Source of the DNA: Caldilineales bacterium
GTDB taxonomy: Bacteria; Chloroflexota; Anaerolineae; J102
Length of the DNA stretch: 56,336 nucleotides
Direction: 5' to 3'
Assembly (NCBI GenBank): GCA_013360575.1
Contig: JABWBG010000012.1
Coordinates: 1 to 56,336 of the forward strand
Shown piece by piece: positions 1 through 19,912 of this stretch. The notes below the pieces were generated by a model, which made no database searches, had not been told where the DNA came from, and saw nothing but the letters and a program-made list of their open reading frames with translations. The first letter of the stretch is position 1; every line of letters begins with the position of its first letter. The position numbers and the translations under genes were made by a program.

Positions 1-1
1 G

Positions 2-1864
2 GGCGGCGGATCACGCGGCCCCGCCCCCGCCGCGCGCCCTGAATCTCAGGCCGTCGCCGTCCAAGAGGCGGAGGCCCCGCCTGCCTCACTCTCCGGCAAA
101 ATCATCATCCCGGAGGTGATTTCGGTGCGCGATCTGGCCGCGGCCATGGGCACCAACCCCATCGAGATCATCCGCACGATGATGAGCTACGGCACCATGG
201 CCAGCATCAACGAGCTGGTCGATTTCGACACCGCGGCCATCGTGGCGTCGGAGTTCAATCTGGAACTGGAGCGGGAAACGGTGGCCGAGCCGGTGGCCGA
301 GCCGGGCGCGGAAGCGCCGAAGACGCTGCGCGAGCGCCTGCTGGAAATGGAGGACGATCCGACCCTGTTGCGTCCCCGCCCACCGGTGGTCACTGTCCTC
401 GGCCATGTCGATCATGGCAAGACCACCCTGTTGGACGCCATTCGCAATACGAACGTGGTGGCGGGTGAGTCCGGCGGCATCACCCAGCATATCGGCGCGT
501 ATCAGGTGGCGATGGAGGGGGGGCGGATCACCTTTTTGGACACCCCCGGCCATGCCGCGTTCACGGCCATGCGCGCTCGCGGGGCCCAGGCCACCGACAT
601 CGCCATCCTGGTGGTGGCCGCTGATGATGGCGTGATGCCGCAGACGCGGGAGGCGATCGCGCATGTGCGGGCCGCGCGGGTGCCGATCGTGGTGGCGCTG
701 AACAAGGTGGATCGGGCCAACGCCAACCCGGATCGGGTGAGGCAGCAGCTTGCGGATCTGGGCTTGCAGCCGGAGATCTGGGGCGGGGACACGCCGGTGG
801 TGGAAGTCTCGGCCAAGCAGCGCCTGAACATCGACGAATTGCTGGCCAATGTGTTGATCACTGCCGAAATGATGCAATTGCAGGCCAATCCCACCGGCCC
901 CGCCGTGGGCACGGTGATCGAAGCCAATCAAGATAAACGCCTGGGCAATGTGGCCACGCTGCTGGTGCAGAAAGGCACCTTGCAGGCCGGCGATGCGATG
1001 GTGCTGGGCAAGACCTGGGGCCGCATTCGGGCGATGTTCGATTATCAGGGCAAGCCGCTGAAGGAAGCGCCGCCGGCCACGCCGGTGCGGGTGACAGGCC
1101 TGCAAGGCGTGCCCGATGCCGGCGACATCTTCCAGGTGGTGGAAAATGACCGCATCGCCCGCCAGATCTCGGCGGAGCGCAGCCAGAAGGAAGTGACGGC
1201 GCAGCCCGCGCCCCGGCTCTCGCTCGATGATCTCTTCGCCCAGATTCAGTCGGGCGCGGTGAAAGAACTGAACCTGATTATCAAAGCGGATGTGCAGGGG
1301 TCGCTGGAGCCGGTTGTCAATTCTCTGCGCGATCTGGACACGAAAGAGGTGAGCGTGCGCATCCTGCATCAGGATGTGGGCGCGGTCACCGAATCGGATG
1401 TGATGTTGGCTACGGCCAGCCATGCCCTGGTGTTGGGATTCAACACCGGCGTGGATCCGATCGCCCGCCGTCAAGCCGAGCAGCAGGGCGTCAGCATCCA
1501 GGTGTACGATGTGATCTACAATCTGGTGGATGATGTGGCCAAAGCTCTGAAGGGCATTCTCGACCCCATTTTCGAGGAGCGTGTGCTGGGCGAAGCCGAA
1601 GTGCGCGCCATCTTCCGGGTGCGGGGACATGCCCGCGTGCTGGGCTGCCAGGTGCGCACCGGCGATATCCGCCGGGACGCTATCGCCCTGGTGCTGCGCA
1701 ATCACAAGGAGATCTTCCGCGGCAAAATCAATAGCCTGAAGCGCTTCCAGGAAGATGTGACAGAAGTGCGCGCCGGGTTCGAGTGCGGCATCGGCATCGA
1801 TGGCTTCAACGACCCCATGGAGGGGGACGTGGTACGCGCCCTGGAACGGGTGCGCGTGCGTTGA
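2..1864 (+). CDS. infB: Translation initiation factor IF-2, 5' end lies upstream of the window
   Basis: Frame is open from base 2 (..[14 protein letters not shown]..). GTPase motifs [17 protein letters not shown] and NKVD are present. The gene is followed by rbfA and truB, as in the conserved infB-rbfA-truB cluster. Confidence 0.95.
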
Positions 1865-13475: not shown

Positions 13476-13505
13476 TAGACATCCCCCCCATTTCCTGTGT
13501 ATAAT
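13476..13505 (+). promoter_or_regulatory. Candidate promoter of the giant wall-hydrolase gene
   Basis: TAGACA (13476-13481), 18-nt spacer, TATAAT (13500-13505). The roughly 90-nt leader has two hairpins (GCGCCCA..TGGGCGT and GTGGCG..CGCCAC). Confidence 0.45.
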
Positions 13506-13598
13506 AGCGCCCATCTGTCTGTCTGGGCGTTCCTTCGCAGTGGTTTATGTGGCGGAGGGACCCACGCCACAAGTTCATCCCCCCTCAAGGCGATCTCT

Positions 13599-16500
13599 AT
13601 GGCCCGGCCACTTTGCGACTCTGAATACATCTACGGACTTCACGATCCTGGCGGCGAGCAGCACATGCTGGACAAAGGCGCGCCGGGGTGGGTTGTCGTC
13701 ACGGAAGGCATCGGTTTCAACCGCAACGACCATGGCAGCAGCGACTATCGCTACCTCTCTGACAAAGGTCTGGGGGTGATGGTGCGGCTGAATGCAGGAT
13801 ACAGTGGGACGGGCACGATCCCGCACGAGCGCAATTACCAGGATTTCGCGCAGCGCTGTGCCAATTTCGTGCGTAACTCGCACGGCGCCCACATCTGGAT
13901 CATCGGCAACGAGATGAATCACCCGGTCGAATGGCCGGGCGCGGACTGGGACTGGGGCGCGCAGCCGCCGGCCCCGCGCAGCGCTGCCCAGACAGGCGAG
14001 GCGATCACCCCGCAGCGGTATGTGCAGTGCTACCGGCTGGCGCGCGAGGCGATCCGCGGGCTGCCCGGACATAGCGAGGATCAGGTGCTGATCGGCGCGG
14101 TCGCGCCCTGGAACAACCTGACCAAATATCAGGGCAATGAGGGCGGCGATTGGATCCTCTATTTCCGCGACATCCTTACCGCCCTAGGCCCCGATCGCTG
14201 CGACGGCATCACCATCCACACCTACACGCACGGCCCGCAGGTGGAAAAGATCGACGCGGAGACGCGCATGGGCGCGCCTTTTCAGAACCGGCGCTACGAA
14301 TTCCGCACCTACATCGACTTCATGGAAGCGATCCCGGCCACCATGCGCCACCTGCCGGTCTACATCACCGAGACGGACCAGGATGAACCGTGGGTGAATG
14401 AGAACAGCAGTTGGGTGCGGCGGGCGTACGGAGAGATCGACTATTGGAATAAAAACAACGCCCAGCAGATCCGGGCGCTGGTGCTCTACCGTTGGCCCCG
14501 TTATGACAAGTGGTACATCGAGGGCAAACAGGGGGTGATCGAAGACTTCCGCATGGCCATGGACTGGAAGCTGAAATGGCGCACCGACGTGGCCCCGCAG
14601 CCAGAAAAGCAGCCCTACCGCGCCGACATCCGCCTGCCGCAGCCCCTCACCGCCGCGGACGCCGGCGCCACCCTGACTGTGGCGGTGACTGTGCGCAACA
14701 CCGGCAGGGATGCCTGGCCGCGCGGGGGGCCAAACCCGGTGCGGCTGGGCTATCGCTGGTACGATGCCGGCGGCCAGCAGGTGGCGGCTGCCGATCATCG
14801 CACGCCCCTGCCGCGCGATGTGGCGCCAGGCGAAGAGGTGCAGATCAGCGCCACGCTGGCCGCGCCGGCGCAGGCGGGAACCTACACCCTCTCCTTCGAT
14901 CTGGTGCACGAAGGCATCACTTGGTTCGCGGACAAGGGCAACACGCCGGCCAAGGCCCGCGTGGCCGTCAGCGGCGCGGCCGCGCCGGCAGAGCAATACT
15001 TCGCCGAGACCAAAGTGTGGGTGCGCGGGGCGTTCCTCGATTTCTATCGCCGCTATGGGCTGGATATCTGCGGCTATCCCATCACCGAAGTCTTCAGCGA
15101 AAACGGCATGAAGACACAATATTTCCAGCGGGTGGCCCTGGAGGAATACGAGCCGGGCAAGGTGCGGCTGCGCCTGACCGCGCAACAGGCACTCGAGGCG
15201 AGCCAGCGCATCACCGCCCTGGAGCAGCAGATCGCGGCCCTGCGCCGGCAGTTGCAATCGGGGGGCGGCGCCGCGCCGCAACCGCCGATGCAGGACGTGA
15301 GCCAAAGCCTGCCTCGCGATGTCAGCGCCATGATCACCCGCCCGCTCACCGACGTGCGGCACATCGTCATCAACCACACCGCGGTGGGGCCGGATGTCGG
15401 AGTCGAGCGCATTGCCCAGGCGCACCGCAAGACCTGGCCGGCCATCGTCTGCCAGTTTTTCATCGACGGCGCCGGCAACATTGTACAGACCAACCCCCTG
15501 ACCGAGGTGGTGAGCAGCAAGGACGTGCATCTGCGCGACGCCATCAACATCCATGTGGCGGGCAACTTCTCCACTGCCACGCCCTCGGCCAATCAGATCG
15601 ATGCGCTGGCCAGCCTCTGCGCCTGGTTGCTGGACATGCTGGGCCTGGAAACGACAGCAGTGCAGGGCGCACGCGAGTTCGTGGTGACGCAATCGCCAGG
15701 CAATAACTGGATGGCCGGCGCCAATTGGAAGCAGACGCTGGTCGACCGCATCGCGCCCCTGCGCGGCAGCGGCGCGCCATCCCCCGGGCCCACGCCCGGC
15801 GATGGCGCCAGCGCCCAAGAAGTGGCCCGCTTGCAGCGGGAGCGGGATGAGCTGGCGGATCATCTGCTGGACGCGCACGCGCAGATCGACATCCTCCATG
15901 GCCGGGTGATGGCGTTGGAGGCGGCGTTGGCAGCAGCGCTGCAAGGGGGCGGCGGGACTGGCGGGGTGCAGCAGCCCGCGGTGCGCGATGTGATCAGCAA
16001 TCTGCCGCGGGCGGCAGAGCGGATGTTCAAGCGCAAGGCTGAGGATGTCCGCTACATTGTCATCAACCACACGGCTGTGCCCCCCACGGTGGGGGTGGAG
16101 CGGGTGGCGCAGGCGCACGCGGCCCGCTGGCCCGCGATTGTCTCGCAGTTCTTCATCGACGGCGAGGGCGCCATCTTGCAGACCAACCCCCTGAACGAGG
16201 TGGTGGATGACAAGCAGGAGTGGATCCTGCGGGGGGTGAATATCCACGTGGCCGGCAATTTCAACGACGCCCTGCCCAGCGAGGCGCAGCTCGACAGCCT
16301 GGCGCGGTTGTGCGCCTGGCTGCTGGCCAGCCAAAAGCTGCCAGACGACGCGATCCGCGGGGCCAGCGAGTTCATCGTCACCCAATCGCCGGGCGCGCAG
16401 TGGCTGGGCGGCCAGCGCTGGAAGGATCTGTTGTTGCAGCGGGTGCAGGCGGTGCGGGCCACAGCCGGGCCAGGCGCGGCGCAGCCAGGATCCGGGCCGG

Positions 16501-17804
16501 ACCCGGCGCTGCTAAATTCTCTGCGCCAACAGATCTCGCAGTTGCAGGCGCAGAACCAGGAGCTGGCGCGGCGTTTGCAGGATGCCACCAATCAACTGGC
16601 GGCCCTGCCCGCAGAGGCGCAGGCCCTGAAAGCGCAGGTGACTACCCTGCAGCGGGAGAAAACCGCGCTGGAAGGGGAGCGCAACCAGGCGCGGACGCAG
16701 GCGGCGCAGTTGCAGACGCAGATCGAGGCCCTGAACCGGCAGGTGCAGGACTTGAACAAGCGTTTGCAAGAGCAGCCGGGAGATGCGGGGCTGCGCGCGC
16801 AGATCGCCACGCTGGAGAAAGAGAAAACCGCGCTGGCCGCGGAGCGAGACCGGCAGCAGCAGAGCATCGCCGCCCTGCAAAAACGGGTGGCGGAGCTGGA
16901 AAAAGGGGGCGGATCGACGCCCCCGCGCGACGAGGCGGCGATGCCGGGCAAGATCGCCAAGCCGCCGATGGTGGAAGTGGTGGATCAATTGATGAAGCAT
17001 CCCACCGAGACCTATCCCAGCCGCGAGCTGACTGCCATCACCCACATCGCCATCCACCACAGCGCCGCGCCGGCCAACATCCCCCCGGAACGGATCGCGA
17101 TCTATCACGTGACGAACGAAAAGCACAAATGGCCGGGCATGGGCTATCACTATTACATCGGCCCGGATGGCGTGATCAATCACACGCAGGACTTGAAACT
17201 GGCCAGCTACCAGGTGTACAAAAACAATCACTACAGCCTGGGCATCTGCGTGGCGGGCAATTTCACCGATGTTATTCCCACCCCCGCGCAGGTGGAATCG
17301 GCTGCGCATCTCACCGCCTGGCTGATGCAGGAGCTACATATCCCGATCGAGCAGGTGTGGGGGCACCGCGAGTTCCCGCTGAACAGCACCTCTTGCCCTG
17401 GCAACCAGTGGCTGGGCGGGCAGAAGTGGAAGGACATCCTGCTCAATCGCGTGCGCGAGATCCAGGGGGGAATCAGCCCGGCGCAGCCCAGCGCGGGCAA
17501 GGCCATCGAGCATTATCTGCTATTCTGGCATCATGGCGGCAACAACTGGGCGCAGCAGGATTGGCAGGCGGCGATCAATTACATCGCTGCCTTCCAGCCC
17601 ACAGCCGGCTTTTCGCTGGATGCGGCCAAGGCGGCGCGGTATGTGACCATCGTCGGCGGCACAGCCGGGGTGAGCCAGCAGATCGAGGATGCGATCCGGA
17701 CGTCGGGCAGCCGGGTGGAACGGTTGGCCGGGCGCGATTTCGCCGAGACCAAGGCCTTGCTCGACCAACTCGCTGCCTCCGGGCGCAAATTCATGACAAT
17801 TTGA
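13599..17804 (+). CDS. Giant multidomain cell-wall hydrolase: GH-A-like TIM barrel + Ig-like module + 2 degenerate and 1 intact Amidase_2 (PGRP-type) domains separated by coiled coils + CWB2-like tail
   Basis: - GH-A motifs: IWIIGNEMNHP (Glu codon 13911-13913) and VYITETDQ (Glu codon 14370-14372).
- Amidase-like domains 1 and 2: INHTAV..HVAGNF..GA(R/S)EF(V/I)VTQSPG.
- Amidase domain 3: IHHSAA..GYHYYI..CVAGNF..GHREFPLNSTSCPGNQW.
- Heptad-rich Q/A/L/E segments at about 15180-15250, 15800-15950 and 16500-16910.
- C-terminal VERLAGRDFAETKALL. Confidence 0.8.
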   Translation: MARPLCDSEYIYGLHDPGGEQHMLDKGAPGWVVVTEGIGFNRNDHGSSDYRYLSDKGLGVMVRLNAGYSGTGTIPHERNYQDFAQRCANFVRNSHGAHIWIIGNEMNHPVEWPGADWDWGAQPPAPRSAAQTGEAITPQRYVQCYRLAREAIRGLPGHSEDQVLIGAVAPWNNLTKYQGNEGGDWILYFRDILTALGPDRCDGITIHTYTHGPQVEKIDAETRMGAPFQNRRYEFRTYIDFMEAIPATMRHLPVYITETDQDEPWVNENSSWVRRAYGEIDYWNKNNAQQIRALVLYRWPRYDKWYIEGKQGVIEDFRMAMDWKLKWRTDVAPQPEKQPYRADIRLPQPLTAADAGATLTVAVTVRNTGRDAWPRGGPNPVRLGYRWYDAGGQQVAAADHRTPLPRDVAPGEEVQISATLAAPAQAGTYTLSFDLVHEGITWFADKGNTPAKARVAVSGAAAPAEQYFAETKVWVRGAFLDFYRRYGLDICGYPITEVFSENGMKTQYFQRVALEEYEPGKVRLRLTAQQALEASQRITALEQQIAALRRQLQSGGGAAPQPPMQDVSQSLPRDVSAMITRPLTDVRHIVINHTAVGPDVGVERIAQAHRKTWPAIVCQFFIDGAGNIVQTNPLTEVVSSKDVHLRDAINIHVAGNFSTATPSANQIDALASLCAWLLDMLGLETTAVQGAREFVVTQSPGNNWMAGANWKQTLVDRIAPLRGSGAPSPGPTPGDGASAQEVARLQRERDELADHLLDAHAQIDILHGRVMALEAALAAALQGGGGTGGVQQPAVRDVISNLPRAAERMFKRKAEDVRYIVINHTAVPPTVGVERVAQAHAARWPAIVSQFFIDGEGAILQTNPLNEVVDDKQEWILRGVNIHVAGNFNDALPSEAQLDSLARLCAWLLASQKLPDDAIRGASEFIVTQSPGAQWLGGQRWKDLLLQRVQAVRATAGPGAAQPGSGPDPALLNSLRQQISQLQAQNQELARRLQDATNQLAALPAEAQALKAQVTTLQREKTALEGERNQARTQAAQLQTQIEALNRQVQDLNKRLQEQPGDAGLRAQIATLEKEKTALAAERDRQQQSIAALQKRVAELEKGGGSTPPRDEAAMPGKIAKPPMVEVVDQLMKHPTETYPSRELTAITHIAIHHSAAPANIPPERIAIYHVTNEKHKWPGMGYHYYIGPDGVINHTQDLKLASYQVYKNNHYSLGICVAGNFTDVIPTPAQVESAAHLTAWLMQELHIPIEQVWGHREFPLNSTSCPGNQWLGGQKWKDILLNRVREIQGGISPAQPSAGKAIEHYLLFWHHGGNNWAQQDWQAAINYIAAFQPTAGFSLDAAKAARYVTIVGGTAGVSQQIEDAIRTSGSRVERLAGRDFAETKALLDQLAASGRKFMTI

Positions 17805-17809
17805 TCTTA

Positions 17810-17953
17810 AAAACGCAAAGGCGCAGAGGTACGCAAAGGTACGCAAAGTTTTTTTGTTTTTTTCTTTGCGTACCTCTGCGCCTTTGCGTTAAATCCTCAT
17901 CTTCTCTGCGTTCCTCTGCGTTCTTTGCGTTAAAATCCTGATCTTCTCTGCGT
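17810..17953. repeat. ACGCAAAG/CTCTGCGTT-type hairpin element plus degenerate direct repeats downstream of the giant gene
   Basis: 27-bp perfect stem: aacgcaaaggcgcagaggtacgcaaag (17812-17838) against ctttgcgtacctctgcgcctttgcgtt (17864-17890), with a T-rich loop. It is followed by two copies of aaatcct(c/g)atcttctctgcgtt (17891-17912 and 17932-17953). Confidence 0.85.
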
Positions 17954-17963
17954 TGAATCTCTC

Positions 17964-18746
17964 ATGCCCAACCCCTTCCAACTCCGCCCCGCCGAGCCTT
18001 ACGTGTTTCATCTGGATGTGGGCGAGGAAGAGCCTTTCCAAGGCCCGATGGATCTGCTGCTGAAGCTGATCGAGCAGGAGGAACTGCCGATCACGTCCGT
18101 CAGCCTGGTGCAGATCACGGGGCAGTATCTGGCGCACCTGGCCGAGATGGAGGAATTGCAACCGGAGGGCATCGCCGAGTTTTTGGTGATGGCGGCGCGG
18201 CTGATCTACATCAAGTCGGCGGCGCTGCTGCCGCGGCCGGCAGCCGAGTCTGAGGAGGAAGAGGAGGATCCGGCAGAAACGCTGGCCCGGCAACTGCGCG
18301 AGTACAAGCTATTCAAGCAGCGGGCCGCGCTGCTGCAAACGTTGGAAGAGGCCGGACAGCGGGCCTATGTGCGCCTGGCCCCGCCGCCGCAACTGCAAAA
18401 ACGTCTGGAACCGGGCGGGCTGAATGTGGCCACGCTGCTGGATGCACTGTACGCCGTGCTGGAAGATCTGGAGGCGCCGCCGCGGCCCATCCACTCCATT
18501 GCCCCCCTCGATATTACCATCGATGCGTGTATGGCCGCGCTGAAAAAGGGATTGGCGGGAGGCAAAAGCGTGCATTTTCGGCAATTTCTGGGGCAGGCGC
18601 GGGGCCGCATCGAGGTGCTGGTGCATTTCCTGGCCCTGTTGGAGATGATCAAATTGGGAGAGATTGCGGTGCGGCAGGAAAAAATGTTTGGGGAGATCGT
18701 GATAGAGGGGGTGGCGCAGGAGGCCAGGCTGCCTGTCGACGTTTGA
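17964..18746 (+). CDS. scpA: Segregation and condensation protein A
   Basis: FQGPMDLLLKLIEQEELPITSVSLVQITGQYLAHL is the typical ScpA N-terminus. No scpB follows. Confidence 0.85.
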   Translation: MPNPFQLRPAEPYVFHLDVGEEEPFQGPMDLLLKLIEQEELPITSVSLVQITGQYLAHLAEMEELQPEGIAEFLVMAARLIYIKSAALLPRPAAESEEEEEDPAETLARQLREYKLFKQRAALLQTLEEAGQRAYVRLAPPPQLQKRLEPGGLNVATLLDALYAVLEDLEAPPRPIHSIAPLDITIDACMAALKKGLAGGKSVHFRQFLGQARGRIEVLVHFLALLEMIKLGEIAVRQEKMFGEIVIEGVAQEARLPVDV

Positions 18747-18816
18747 GGCGCTTTTCGTGGTGCGTGGTGCGTCTCGGCTAGTGTTGCGGAAGCCCTGTGT
18801 GGTTGTTTTTTGGTTC

Positions 18817-18845
18817 TTGACAGCCCGCGGGCAGGCTGCTATACT
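18817..18845 (+). promoter_or_regulatory. Near-consensus sigma70 promoter of the LacI-headed operon
   Basis: TTGACA (18817-18822), 17-nt spacer, TATACT (18840-18845). Confidence 0.65.
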
Positions 18846-18856
18846 CGCCGTAGACG

Positions 18857-18876
18857 TTGAGCACACGTGTGCTCAA
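18857..18876. promoter_or_regulatory. Perfect 20-bp palindrome, candidate LacI-family operator
   Basis: TTGAGCACACGTGTGCTCAA begins about 5 nt downstream of the predicted TSS and about 20 nt upstream of the regulator ATG. Confidence 0.6.
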
Positions 18877-18898
18877 GCATGATCAAACCGTCCCCTCC

Positions 18899-19912
18899 AT
18901 GTCCACAGGCAAAGAGATCTCCATCCGCGATATTGCCGAGGCCGCCGGCGTCAGCCACACCACGGTGAGCCGGGCGCTGCATGGCCGCGGGCGCATGCGC
19001 GCCGATACCCGCGCCCACATCCAGGCCCTGGCCGAGCAGATGGGCTACACACCCGACGTCAGGGCGCGCAGCTTGGTCAGCGGCGAGACCCGCACCATTG
19101 GCGTCGTGGTCACCACCATCGCCGATCCCTTCGTGGTGCAGATCGTGGATGGCATCGAGGCGGTGGCGCAGGCCGCGGGCTACAGCCTCTTTCTCAGCGC
19201 CTCGCACTCCGACCCGGAGCGGGAGCTGGCGGTGGTGGAAACCTTTCACCAGCGCCGTGTGGATGCGGTCATCGTCACCGCTTCACGCGTGGGCAACCTG
19301 TACGCCGCCCGTTTGAAACAGTTCGGCGCCCCGATCGTGCTGATCAACAACCTGCAGGAGGGGCCTTATCTCTATTCCGTCTCTGCCGACGATGTGGCCG
19401 GCGCGCAGTTGGCGGTGGCGCATCTGCTGGAGTTGGGGCACCGCCGCATCGCCTATCTTGGCTCCACTTCCCGGCCTATATCTTCGCTACGCCGCCAACA
19501 GGGCTACGCCGCGGCGTTGCAAGAGGCCGGCATCTCCTTCGACCCTGCTCTGGTGGCGGCCCCGGAGGCCGAGAGCGACCTGGCCGCGGGGCAGGAGGGG
19601 CTGTGGATGCTGCTGGCCGCCGCGCCCACCGCCCTTTTTGCCTACAACGACATGACCGCCATCGGCGTATTGCAGGGGGCCGCCCGCATGGGAATCGACA
19701 TTCCGGGCAAACTCAGCGTCATCGGCTTCGACGACAACGAAATCGCCCGGCTGGTGACGCCGCCGCTGAGCACCATCCACCAGCCGCAGCAGGAATTGGG
19801 GCGTCGAGCCATGCACATGGCGCTCGACTTACTGGCCAAACGCCAGATCAACGACGTCATCCTGCCTTGCACCCTTGTCCTCCGCGCCACCACCGCCTCA
19901 CCCACCCACTAA
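18899..19912 (+). CDS. LacI-family transcriptional regulator
   Basis: HTH ISIRDIAEAAGVSHTTVSRALHG, followed by a periplasmic-binding-protein-like sugar-binding domain. The ORF-track start at 18857 is a TTG inside the operator; the ATG at 18899 is preferred. Confidence 0.85.
   Translation: MSTGKEISIRDIAEAAGVSHTTVSRALHGRGRMRADTRAHIQALAEQMGYTPDVRARSLVSGETRTIGVVVTTIADPFVVQIVDGIEAVAQAAGYSLFLSASHSDPERELAVVETFHQRRVDAVIVTASRVGNLYAARLKQFGAPIVLINNLQEGPYLYSVSADDVAGAQLAVAHLLELGHRRIAYLGSTSRPISSLRRQQGYAAALQEAGISFDPALVAAPEAESDLAAGQEGLWMLLAAAPTALFAYNDMTAIGVLQGAARMGIDIPGKLSVIGFDDNEIARLVTPPLSTIHQPQQELGRRAMHMALDLLAKRQINDVILPCTLVLRATTASPTH

Follow-up and report, generated by a model that had tools for sequence, protein, structure and literature searches.

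A gene in the window, by which we mean the whole 56,336-nucleotide stretch of Caldilineales bacterium DNA that was analysed, encodes a protein that is, with a probability of roughly 0.6, a chromosomal, vertically inherited multi-domain wall hydrolase, acting as a division-associated autolysin, of filamentous Anaerolineae including Caldilineales. The family is so far unstudied. The order of domains proposed by a first-pass annotation made from the letters alone was borne out for every module (Table 1), and the motifs that it had quoted (IWIIGNEMNHP, VYITETDQ, GAREF/GASEF..TQSPG and GHREF..STSCPG) were all found in the translation.

Table 1. Positions in the window of the wall hydrolase gene, the modules that it encodes and the adjacent features
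Feature	Position	Strand	Protein coordinates and evidence
Promoter-like site, TAGACA-18-TATAAT	13476..13505	+	11/12 matches; upstream of the wall hydrolase gene
Multi-domain wall hydrolase gene, complete ORF	13599..17804	+	1,401 aa plus stop codon; identical protein P0121
(alpha/beta)8 barrel, clan GH-A type, unclassified family	13599..14588	+	aa 1-330; AF2 pLDDT 94.5; Foldseek; invariant residues
NBR1-type Ig-like domain (PF16158, N_BRCA1_IG)	14655..14933	+	aa 353-445; 40.9 bits, cut-off 28
Conserved small module	14985..15167	+	aa 463-523; about 60 aa; family conservation
Coiled coil 1	15168..15257	+	aa 524-553, 30 aa; a/d 89% LIVMA; no Pro/Gly
Amidase_2 domain 1, catalytically degenerate	15321..15758	+	aa 575-720; Pfam E 5.5e-11; alignment
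Coiled coil 2	15810..15941	+	aa 738-781, 44 aa; a/d 85% LIVMA
Amidase_2 domain 2, catalytically degenerate	16011..16448	+	aa 805-950; Pfam E 7e-13; PDB 1sxr match
Coiled coil 3	16503..16904	+	aa 969-1102; coiled-coil family matches, heptads
Amidase_2 domain 3, canonical	17001..17453	+	aa 1135-1285; Pfam E 2.9e-21; PDB matches
Single CWB2-like alpha/beta wall-binding domain	17499..17801	+	aa 1301-1401; AF2 pLDDT 86; Foldseek; profile
Hairpin, perfect 28-bp stem	17812..17890	.	dG -60.9 kcal/mol, z -9.6
scpA (kleisin of the SMC condensin complex), conserved downstream neighbour	17964..18746	+	Pfam SMC_ScpA E 7.6e-26

Gene model and assembly

The open frame extends over 13497..17804 (+), and the ATG at 13599 yields the 1,401-aa product. 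Since Met1 and residues 8-20 build strand 1 of the barrel and are conserved in at least 90% of homologues, 13599 is the true start of the gene; the alternative GTG start at 13497 is overlapped by the promoter-like site. The ORF itself is real. A mis-assembly of repeated amidase modules, which the first-pass annotation had raised as a possibility, is ruled out because P0121, a protein occurring on 4 independent contigs, matches the product at 100% identity across 1,379 aa, the amidase-domain copies have diverged at the DNA level (identity of merely 64-82%, in stretches of at most 79 nt) and the GC content of the gene is that of its flanks. No near-identical internal DNA repeats were found within the ORF.

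An N-terminal barrel of clan GH-A type

The AlphaFold model of the N-terminal domain has eight strands, with N104-E105 after strand 4, H207 and Y209 in strand 6, E258 in strand 7 and W299 after strand 8, and these key residues (NE, H.Y, TE and W) are invariant in sets of 46, 31 and 62 diverse members. N104-E105 would provide the putative acid/base and E258 the putative nucleophile, the barrel being of the retaining type. Foldseek matches of the model in the PDB were restricted to clan GH-A TIM barrels, the top ones all belonging to GH26, GH44, GH5, GH79, GH1, GH128, GH39 or GH10; the glycosidase assignment made from the two acidic motifs thus stands. With clan GH-A enzymes (GH5, GH26, GH44, GH128, GH39 and others) the domain shares the (alpha/beta)8 barrel, the Asn-Glu after strand 4, the His..Tyr of strand 6, the Glu of strand 7 and the Trp after strand 8, but its identity to clan GH-A structures is just 10-15%, at a TM-score of about 0.5. 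Because the barrel has no match in Pfam, NCBIfam, PHROG or the PDB sequences, and no profile link to any solved structure, we consider it a candidate new glycoside hydrolase family, comprising about 1,300 clusters at 50% identity.

The known context of clan GH-A is the degradation of plant or algal polysaccharides, whereas the barrel described here is found among peptidoglycan hydrolases: across 62 diverse cluster representatives it is paired with Amidase_2 (17), PF11860 muramidase (12), SH3_3 (7), Peptidase_M23 (5), GH108 (2) and LysM (2). To our knowledge, no clan GH-A family cleaves peptidoglycan glycan strands, a point against the proposed autolysin role.

Two degenerate and one canonical amidase domain

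Each of the three Amidase_2 domains (aa 584-691, 815-923 and 1146-1269) scores over the Pfam cut-off. Domain 3, whose PDB matches are amidases, PGRPs and T7 lysozyme, has the complete catalytic and zinc-binding set (H1154, Y1183, H1256, T1264 and C1266). Domains 1 and 2, which are 56% identical to each other, keep the first His (H593 and H824) and have the Tyr replaced by C618 and S849, the second zinc His by A691 and A922 and the Cys by S699 and S930. The loss of the second His and the Cys had been read from the motifs, and an alignment of 119 homologues agrees: in the last amidase domain each of H, Y, H, T and C is kept in 114-119 of 119 sequences, and among 219 upstream domains the second zinc His never occurs (0/219), Ser stands for Cys in 215 and the first His is present in 216. 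A Glu two residues past the lost His is found in 212/218 of the n1 and n2 domains, and the catalytic position holds a Tyr in 58/119 and 69/99 of the upstream domains across the family. We saw no conserved substitute metal ligand in the alignment of the dead domains, a possibility that the first-pass annotation had raised.

The proposal that domains 1 and 2 serve as PGRP-like binding modules was strengthened, as the best solved-structure sequence match of domain 2 is Drosophila PGRP-SA (1sxr, E 6.6e-5), a non-amidase receptor of the same fold family in which the TQSPG motif is identical. Although two of its zinc residues are lost, PGRP-SA still binds peptidoglycan, without zinc and by means of the equivalent Ser and His (PMC515366). 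The pattern of loss is common to both, with the first His kept, the second lost and Cys changed to Ser; given the weak sequence similarity, it is probably convergent. PGRP-SA is an animal immune receptor made of a stand-alone secreted domain, whereas domains 1 and 2 belong to a bacterial protein, a putative autolysin, in which a live copy stands beside them.

Ig-like module, coiled coils and tail

The Ig/NBR1-like module noted earlier was identified as N_BRCA1_IG (Table 1). Between it and coiled coil 1 lies a conserved small module that was missing from the earlier list, with the consensus F..T..WV.G.F..FYRRYGLD..GYPI......QYFQRV.LE and with no match in the PDB, Pfam or PHROG. The coiled-coil spacers are likewise real, as judged from family matches and from the heptad pattern, in which LIVMA residues take up 85-90% of the a and d positions in all sub-segments (n=5) bar the last one, against an overall background of 35-55%. 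Coiled coil 3, to which Pfam coiled-coil families match too, contains an internal 55-aa duplication (repeat 16632-16686 / 16797-16851). Pro/Gly residues interrupt it, leaving stretches of about 35, 55 and 41 aa in which the a/d LIVMA fractions are 0.90 (aa 969-1003), 0.87 (1004-1058) and 0.67 (1062-1102). Because spacer lengths vary widely across homologues (30-158 and 80-280 aa), the coiled coils do not make a ruler of constant length; this variation and the splitting of the long coiled coil into three weaken the idea of a wall-remodelling ruler.

The tail is a single unit that is CWB2-like by profile and by fold, as had been suspected. Its family profile matched Cwp8 in the PDB at E 1.4e-10 and its top Foldseek matches were Cwp8 and SlpA HMW, with the C-terminal domain of the CD27L endolysin also among the fold matches; against Pfam CWB2 it reached merely E 0.1, which is under the cut-off. 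Characterised CWB2 anchors consist of three tandem copies. A CWB2-type tether is shared with Cwp19, Cwp6, Cwp8 and SlpA of Clostridioides difficile, where wall hydrolases are anchored in this way, Cwp19 combining a TIM-barrel GHL10 domain and Cwp6 an Amidase_3 domain with 3 CWB2 domains each. The C. difficile proteins have signal peptides and the full tandem, whereas the protein described here has one unit below the Pfam cut-off. Cwp19, a CWB2-anchored TIM-barrel glycosidase active on peptidoglycan, has Gly328 in place of the strand-7 Glu (PMC5765458) that is invariant in our barrel, and it was absent among the top 50 fold matches of the latter.

Distribution, export signals and gene neighbourhood

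Hundreds of filamentous Chloroflexota genomes encode the wall hydrolase. Full-length homologues at 40-85% identity number more than 100, and species-representative genomes contained 563 relatives. All of the 78 loci retained for comparison come from Chloroflexota MAGs and were labelled almost without exception Anaerolineae, Anaerolineales or Caldilineales/Caldilineaceae. The full architecture, at first described as unusual, recurs across Anaerolineae and Caldilineales; it is no one-off and defines a conserved family.

No signal peptide, lipobox or transmembrane segment was found in the protein, confirming an earlier remark on its start, so that its action outside the cytoplasm is assumed; its highest KD19 hydropathy (1.38) lies within amidase domain 1. 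Signal peptides were also absent across the Chloroflexota family members.

Of 66 evaluable loci (species), 50 have scpA next to the gene, downstream and in the same orientation, and 16 lack the adjacency; it is also present in L001-L003, with the stop codon and the scpA start overlapping in L002. This syntenic position recurs across species whose orthologues are just 35-60% identical. The neighbours in the window are aspS, folD, scpA, a LacI-family regulator and dehydrogenases, with no phage genes near the wall hydrolase gene and no ftsEX genes adjoining it. The hairpin, a possible terminator, attenuator or repeat element, lies in the 159-nt spacer before scpA, and because both separate the two genes, their co-transcription in this window is uncertain. 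Gene order alone is no proof of a functional link to scpA.

Discussion

An Amidase_2 MurNAc-L-Ala amidase, a glycosidase and wall-binding repeats are joined in one polypeptide in Staphylococcus aureus Atl (and AtlE) as well, a bifunctional amidase and glucosaminidase autolysin. Atl has a role in daughter-cell separation (abstract of PMC6262408). Atl differs in having a signal peptide and a propeptide, in being cleaved into two enzymes, in its GH73 glycosidase and in its SH3b-like repeats, the place of which is taken here by dead amidase domains, and it has neither the coiled coils nor the CWB2 domain. LytA of Streptococcus pneumoniae, at 318 aa, has one catalytic domain and choline-binding repeats and is without glycosidase, dead domains or coiled coils. 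Like the protein described here, it is a chromosomal Amidase_2 enzyme lacking a signal peptide and bearing a C-terminal wall-binding module, which in LytA recognises a wall polymer; LytA works at the septum and contributes to daughter-cell separation (PMC12029793). Coiled coils are also joined to a peptidoglycan hydrolase or degenerate hydrolase domain in the FtsEX-controlled proteins EnvC, PcsB, CwlO and RipC, which function at the division site and for which regulation of a live amidase by a dead domain is an established theme (abstracts of PMC7668044 and PMC11139282). These are exported, and their single coiled-coil region precedes a LytM, CHAP or NlpC/P60 domain, whereas in the protein described here coiled coils alternate with Amidase_2 domains.

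The protein might instead be cytoplasmic, either recycling peptidoglycan as an AmpD-like amidase plus glycosidase that works on muropeptides taken up by the cell, or forming a coiled-coil scaffold in physical contact with SMC-ScpA. The lack of signal peptides or membrane segments in the Chloroflexota family, a Met1 inside the barrel, the direct coupling to scpA and the label 'AmpD' that source annotations give to homologues would all fit, as would the likeness of the long coiled coils to SMC or crescentin rods in profile scans, but those matches reflect generic similarity and are far below the cut-offs. Furthermore, the CWB2-like anchor, the PGRP-SA-like domains and the Ig-like module form a set typical of wall-bound proteins, paralogues join the barrel to LysM, SH3, M23 and muramidase domains, distant barrel homologues bear classical signal peptides, and LytA sets a precedent for a signal-less Amidase_2 autolysin at the septum. 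We consider a cytoplasmic role unlikely.

It is unlikely, too, that domains 1 and 2 do more than bind, either through a zinc-independent His-Ser activity or through allosteric activation or inhibition of domain 3 in the manner of degenerate LytM proteins. The near-invariance of His, Ser and Glu exceeds what simple decay would leave, and in PGRP-SA the reported L,D-carboxypeptidase activity requires both His42 and Ser158, which are close enough for a hydrogen bond (PMC515366). The same residues, however, serve ligand binding in PGRP-SA, so their conservation cannot separate binding from catalysis, and both the absence of a conserved substitute metal ligand and the unconserved Tyr position argue against an activity.

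Finally, an endolysin that was domesticated or stems from a prophage is highly improbable, as is the antibacterial lysin that the first-pass annotation had also suggested, which would be freed by lysis against neighbouring cells: the missing signal, the multi-catalytic design with a C-terminal wall-binding domain, the CD27L match of the tail and the PHROG endolysin/amidase matches of all three amidase domains (domain 3, phrog_1493, E 3e-23) do recall endolysins, but PHROG gave nothing significant for the other modules (barrel none, Ig none, tail best E 0.02), viral fold matches of the barrel are just generic GH5 barrels (TM about 0.5), the GC content is that of the flanks, the neighbouring genes are of a housekeeping kind with no phage genes among them, and the syntenic position recurs among species with diverged orthologues.

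For a division-associated autolysin, what we infer of substrate, export route and the link to scpA would run as follows. The protein would leave the cell without a cleavable Sec or Tat signal, LytA-like release being one precedent. Its CWB2-like tail would dock it on a wall polymer and domains 1 and 2 on peptidoglycan stem peptides, while the coiled coils may oligomerise it and so multiply the binding sites, which could gather single CWB2 units as the three tandem repeats do in the Clostridioides proteins. Domain 3 would next cut MurNAc-L-Ala bonds, and the barrel a non-muramidase glycosidic bond, either GlcNAc-MurNAc or one in a peptidoglycan-linked polysaccharide. Among the roles suggested early on, the conserved adjacency to scpA favours that of a septal enzyme in a filamentous organism and, because the gene lies directly upstream of scpA in most species, its activity would most likely fall late in the cell cycle, in septum splitting or in remodelling within the filament.

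Gene model and family

The open frame encoding the hydrolase runs from 13497 to 17804 on the forward strand, and the protein read from the ATG at 13599 has 1,401 aa. We take this ATG as the real start because Met1, S8, G13, H15, G18, G19 and E20 are conserved in at least 90% of homologues in our alignments, because in the structural model these residues form the first barrel strand, and because a promoter-like site covers the alternative GTG at 13497. The first-pass annotation had suggested checking this upstream start for a signal peptide. None is gained: the 34-aa extension is not signal-like (maximum hydropathy 0.94) and is not conserved among the homologues. The promoter-like site is one of two lying back to back with 11/12 matches each, 13471-13443 on the minus strand toward aspS and 13476-13505 on the plus strand toward the hydrolase; the aspS ORF ends at 13514, 84 nt from the hydrolase ATG. 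A search of the upstream region against Rfam for a riboswitch or leader RNA returned only sub-threshold miRNA hairpin models, far below the cut-off.

It had also been raised that the frame might be a mis-assembly of repeated amidase modules. This is ruled out by a collected homologue, P0121, which is 100% identical to the hydrolase over 1,379 aa and was found on four contigs, and by the DNA of the amidase copies, which is just 64-82% identical and only in stretches of up to 79 nt. The GC content of the gene equals that of its flanks and is flat across the region, excluding a horizontal-transfer island.

The complete architecture is conserved: more than 100 homologues of 1,000-1,600 aa are 40-85% identical to the hydrolase across its full length, and about 120 of the 241 collected proteins carry, in this order, a barrel, an Ig domain and/or small module, one or two dead amidases, a live amidase and a tail. 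The small module, which was missing from the earlier list of domains, occurs in most long-form homologues and had no match in Pfam, PHROGs or the PDB; a family profile found only chromodomain matches in the PDB, at chance level (E 0.36). We found 563 relatives in species-representative genomes, and the 78 retained loci all come from MAGs of Chloroflexota; the labels Anaerolineae, Anaerolineales or Caldilineales/Caldilineaceae cover nearly all of them. Locus L077, which carries an orthologue, bears the label of a cultured relative, Litorilinea aerophila.

Anaerolineae also hold short paralogues of about 790 aa (loci L047, L049-L053, L056 and L065, and protein P0251), in which the barrel is followed by a coiled coil, a live Amidase_2 domain and the CWB2-like tail, and the dead domains have left weak traces at most, P0251 having two Amidase_2 stretches; scpA does not follow these genes.

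Features of the hydrolase gene and its flanks
Feature	Position (nt)	Residues (aa)	Strand	Evidence or remark
Promoter-like site TAGACA-18-TATAAT	13476-13505		+	11/12 matches; overlaps alternative GTG 13497
Predicted clan GH-A-type barrel		1-330	+	AlphaFold2 model, Foldseek, invariant residues
NBR1-like Ig domain PF16158		353-445	+	40.9 bits against a gathering score of 28
Conserved small module, ~60 aa	14985-15167	463-523	+	F..T..WV.G.F..FYRRYGLD..GYPI...QYFQRV.LE
Coiled coil 1		524-553	+	clean heptads
Coiled coil 2		738-781	+	clean heptads
Coiled coil 3		969-1102	+	clean heptads
CWB2-like tail (candidate), single unit		1301-1401	+	model, Foldseek, family profile
Perfect hairpin, 28-bp stem, T-rich loop	17812-17890			in spacer 17805-17963 (159 nt); dG -60.9 kcal/mol, z -9.6

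The N-terminal barrel

The AlphaFold2 model of the barrel, built with 46 homologues (pLDDT 94.5, pTM 0.91), has eight strands alternating with helices. Compared with the PDB by Foldseek it gave 112 matches at E<=1e-3, and the best 50 of these 112 were all GH-A-type barrels, headed by the GH26 structure 2bv9 (E 4e-8) and followed by GH44, GH5, GH79, GH1, GH128, GH39 and GH10, with TM-scores of about 0.5 and 10-15% identity. In the 4/7 superfamily an Asn-Glu pair ends strand 4, providing the acid/base, and a Glu ends strand 7 as the nucleophile. N104-E105 directly follow strand 4 (99-102) in the model and E258 lies within strand 7 (254-261); E105 and E258 are invariant in all three independent alignments and N104 in two of them, with at least 90% conservation in the remaining one, and H207 and Y209 (strand 6) and W299 (after strand 8) are invariant or nearly so throughout. 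The model thus predicts an (alpha/beta)8 fold with the classic GH-A residue pattern, in agreement with the first reading, which had named a GH-A barrel and the motifs NE and TE; the alternative allowed for there, that this domain might have no glycosidase fold, did not come true.

Sequence searches with the barrel in Pfam (whole protein and isolated domain), NCBIfam, PHROGs and the PDB (phmmer) found no match at E<=10, nor did a 46-sequence barrel profile against the PDB. It therefore could be placed by fold comparison only, and judged against these four resources it appears to belong to no described sequence family. A viral origin was rejected, as a fold search of BFVD yielded only generic GH5-like barrels (TM ~0.5). 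Searched against 1.84 billion cluster representatives, the barrel profile retrieved 1,309 clusters at E<=1e-3, 726 of them at E<=1e-30, which makes a family of some 1,300 clusters (50% identity). Among 62 diverse representatives, the partner domains were Amidase_2 (17), the muramidase PF11860 (12), NBR1 Ig (9), SH3_3 (7), Peptidase_M23 (5), GH108 (2) and LysM (2), and LysM fusions were common in a separate listing of partner domains. Given this repeated pairing with muramidases, amidases and endopeptidases, the barrel may cut a bond other than those of its partners, either GlcNAc-MurNAc or a wall-linked polysaccharide.

Export and site of action

Neither a signal peptide nor a lipobox or membrane segment is present in the hydrolase, and its highest 19-residue hydropathy (1.38) falls within domain 1, bearing out the first impression that an obvious signal peptide is missing. 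The whole Chloroflexota family is likewise devoid of these signals. Such a protein might act in cytoplasmic recycling or as a scaffold, a role that we consider unlikely, if the most probable of the alternatives. Twelve distant barrel homologues (P0287, P0301, P0316, P0323, P0325, P0332, P0334, P0336, P0344, P0357, P0365 and P0111) carry classical signal peptides. These sit immediately N-terminal of the conserved barrel start (e.g. in P0344, P0365, P0316 and P0111), so the barrel acts extracytoplasmically in some organisms at least. There is also a precedent for the hydrolase in LytA of S. pneumoniae, an Amidase_2 autolysin that acts at the septum and equally has no signal peptide (PMC12029793).

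Dead and live amidase domains

Domains 1, 2 and 3 score 43.3, 49.5 and 76.6 bits against Amidase_2 (PF01510; cut-off 26). Catalysis by this fold involves the zinc ligands His, His and Cys (H17, H122 and C130 in T7 lysozyme) and a Tyr. Domain 3, which finds amidases, PGRPs and T7 lysozyme among solved structures, is complete (H1154, Y1183, H1256, T1264, C1266) and is predicted to be a canonical zinc amidase with MurNAc-L-Ala activity. Domains 1 and 2, which share 56% identity with one another and 33-35% with domain 3, keep the first His (H593 and H824), whereas the Tyr is replaced by C618 and S849, the second His by A691 and A922, and the Cys by S699 and S930.

This division had been read from the hydrolase itself, and it holds throughout the family. 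In 119 homologues the last amidase domain has its H, Y, H, T and C in 119, 114, 117, 116 and 117 cases, respectively. The second His is present in none of 219 upstream domains, being replaced by Val, Leu, Ala, Ile or Met, while the Cys site is Ser in 215 and the first His is kept in 216; a Glu two residues past the lost His and a Pro-Gly after the Ser are also retained. The family alignment contains no conserved substitute metal ligand, which had been named as a possible objection. The upstream domains thus look like old pseudo-amidase domains maintained by selection.

The loss of zinc residues follows the pattern of PGRP-SA, which among solved structures matches domain 2 best and has the identical TQSPG motif. 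The position of the first His was anchored on PGRP-SA, where the alignment reproduces the Thr156/Ser158 numbering and places His42 on the retained His. In Drosophila PGRP-SA two of the four zinc residues are gone and there is no metal; its Ser158 is essential for binding Lys-type peptidoglycan and is close enough to His42 for a hydrogen bond, and in PGRP-SC1B replacing the Cys by Ser abolishes activity and leaves binding intact (PMC515366). That domains 1 and 2 nevertheless keep residual or regulatory activity is a further alternative, slightly less probable than a cytoplasmic role, and it would modify the main model of a septal autolysin, not replace it.

Coiled coils and tail

Four of the five coiled-coil segments scored have L, I, V, M or A at 85-90% of their a/d positions, and the fifth (aa 1062-1102) at 67%, against 35-55% overall. 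Coiled coil 3 matches many coiled-coil Pfam families, and Pro/Gly breaks cut it into three stretches of roughly 35, 55 and 41 aa. It also contains a duplicated 55-aa unit (16632-16686 and 16797-16851, 75% DNA identity), reading AQVTTLQREKTALEGERNQ in the first copy and AQIATLEKEKTALAAERDR in the second. Among the homologues, the spacer between dead domains 1 and 2 measures 30-158 aa (median 86) and that before the live amidase 80-280 aa (median 134). Lengths that differ about 4- to 5-fold speak against a ruler of fixed length, and so the wall-remodelling ruler proposed in the first-pass annotation is disfavoured.

The model of the tail is a small alpha/beta domain (pLDDT 86), for which 8 of the 11 best PDB matches by Foldseek were Cwp8 (E 6.3e-4, 25% identity) and SlpA HMW chains (TMq 0.52-0.63), and a profile of 18 family tails found Cwp8 at E 1.4e-10 and SlpA HMW at 3.7e-10. 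Pfam CWB2 (PF04122) scores the tail at 13.6 bits against a cut-off of 24.9 (E 0.1). Since fold and family profile match and Pfam CWB2 stays below its cut-off, we call the tail CWB2-like, as had been proposed, and regard it as a candidate wall anchor. The ligand of CWB2 domains is an anionic secondary wall polymer, PSII in C. difficile, and a comparable polymer would be the predicted partner here. It is single: the three tandem CWB2 copies of an anchoring module were not found in the hydrolase. A search with the tail only returned 10 proteins, probably fragments of the hydrolase family, and added no new partner architectures.

Linkage to scpA

The gene lies in a housekeeping neighbourhood, with genes for a UbiA-family prenyltransferase and a metallo-beta-lactamase-fold protein, folD and the divergent aspS upstream, and scpA, a LacI-family regulator and dehydrogenases downstream. 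In L001-L003, three loci whose homologues are 42-57% identical to the hydrolase, scpA is directly downstream, and in L002 its start overlaps the hydrolase stop. Of the 82 loci, 66 could be evaluated, having the tail and over 1 kb of sequence downstream, and in 50 of these scpA follows within 600 nt in the same orientation. The 16 exceptions are six short paralogues of about 790 aa, two genes without a barrel, seven long forms without scpA and one locus with scpA 730 nt away. The persistence of this adjacency among orthologues only 35-60% identical suggests that the hydrolase is co-expressed, or at least co-regulated, with the condensin kleisin gene scpA. In the window itself read-through is uncertain, as the spacer of 159 nt and its perfect hairpin lie in between.

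Both hairpin arms are unique within the window, Rfam gave only far-sub-threshold miRNA hairpin models for the intergenic hairpin, and short TCTGCGTT-type repeats extend downstream of it to about 17955. From 17964 to 19912 scpA is followed by the LacI-family regulator and not by scpB, so the two scp genes are not adjacent in this segment. On the 1.1-Mb Chloroflexota contig of locus L002 (ENA metagenome assembly), a 1,071-aa paralogue (L002:2575-5790), also devoid of signal peptide, lipobox and membrane segment, lies just upstream of the orthologue; in it the barrel, enlarged by some 190 inserted aa, is joined to four SH3-like repeats and Peptidase_M23; the order there is barrel-M23, barrel-amidase and scpA, with smc about 4 kb beyond.

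A phage-derived or antibacterial lysin is improbable, since no phage lysis cassette, holin or phage structural gene is found among the neighbours, which are of the housekeeping kind (aspS, folD, scpA, the LacI-family regulator, dehydrogenases), and the chromosomal synteny recurs across species.

Comparison with known wall hydrolases and proposed function

Besides LytA and PGRP-SA, the closest functional analogues are Atl, Cwp19 and Cwp6, and EnvC, PcsB and CwlO. Atl also combines an amidase with a glycosidase. Cwp19 and Cwp6 join a hydrolase to CWB2; the TIM barrel of Cwp19 degrades peptidoglycan and lacks the strand-7 Glu (PMC5765458) that is present in our barrel. EnvC, PcsB and CwlO pair a coiled coil with a hydrolase or dead hydrolase. 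Members of this FtsEX-controlled class have a signal peptide, an FtsX-docking coiled coil and often an adjacent ftsEX, whereas the hydrolase is without a signal peptide and has no ftsEX within about 5 kb. The architecture of the hydrolase is seen in none of these proteins, nor in LytA or PGRP-SA, and the literature on Chloroflexota/Anaerolineae peptidoglycan hydrolases and on scpA-autolysin operons yielded no paper on the family. We rate it as a probable multi-domain autolysin whose parts are known and whose combination and barrel family are new.

From the domain identities, the state of the catalytic residues, the conservation and the synteny we infer how it might work. The CWB2-like tail and the PGRP-SA-like domains 1 and 2 would dock the protein on a wall polymer and on stem peptides, respectively, and the coiled coils would oligomerise it. 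CWB2 occurs as three tandem repeats in Clostridioides proteins, and a trimer could bring three CWB2-like units together in a similar manner. Domain 3 would then cut MurNAc-L-Ala and the barrel a glycosidic bond of the wall, and the linkage to scpA would point to action at or after septation within the filament. Among the functions first proposed, a septal enzyme is accordingly favoured, and both the ruler and an antibacterial lysin are weakened.

In its most far-reaching form this reading joins three claims, namely that the barrel founds a new wall-cutting GH-A family, that the hydrolase is a Sec-independent, coiled-coil-oligomerised septal 'splitase' co-expressed with ScpA, and that the dead domains are sensors or regulators; we give the conjunction a probability of roughly 0.15. 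If it is true, the barrel would act in Chloroflexota on the peptidoglycan glycan or on a polysaccharide linked to peptidoglycan, domains of the dead PGRP-SA-like type would sense substrate or regulate the live amidase from within the protein, and segregation and septal wall cleavage would be coupled at the operon level in multicellular filaments. This would be no change of paradigm unless activity, localisation and coupling were demonstrated.

Chloroflexota are abundant filamentous bacteria of sludge, sediments and hot springs, and to our knowledge their cell division and envelope biology are almost unstudied. Tied by its fusions to peptidoglycan hydrolases, the barrel is a candidate for a new CAZy family, possibly with a new bond specificity in wall turnover, and the zinc-less PGRP-SA-like modules, long fixed beside a live copy, offer a natural system for the study of pseudoenzymes in wall hydrolases. 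Furthermore, a clade of signal-less wall enzymes points to an undescribed route of export or release, and the conserved autolysin-then-scpA pair suggests that wall splitting and chromosome segregation are coordinated.
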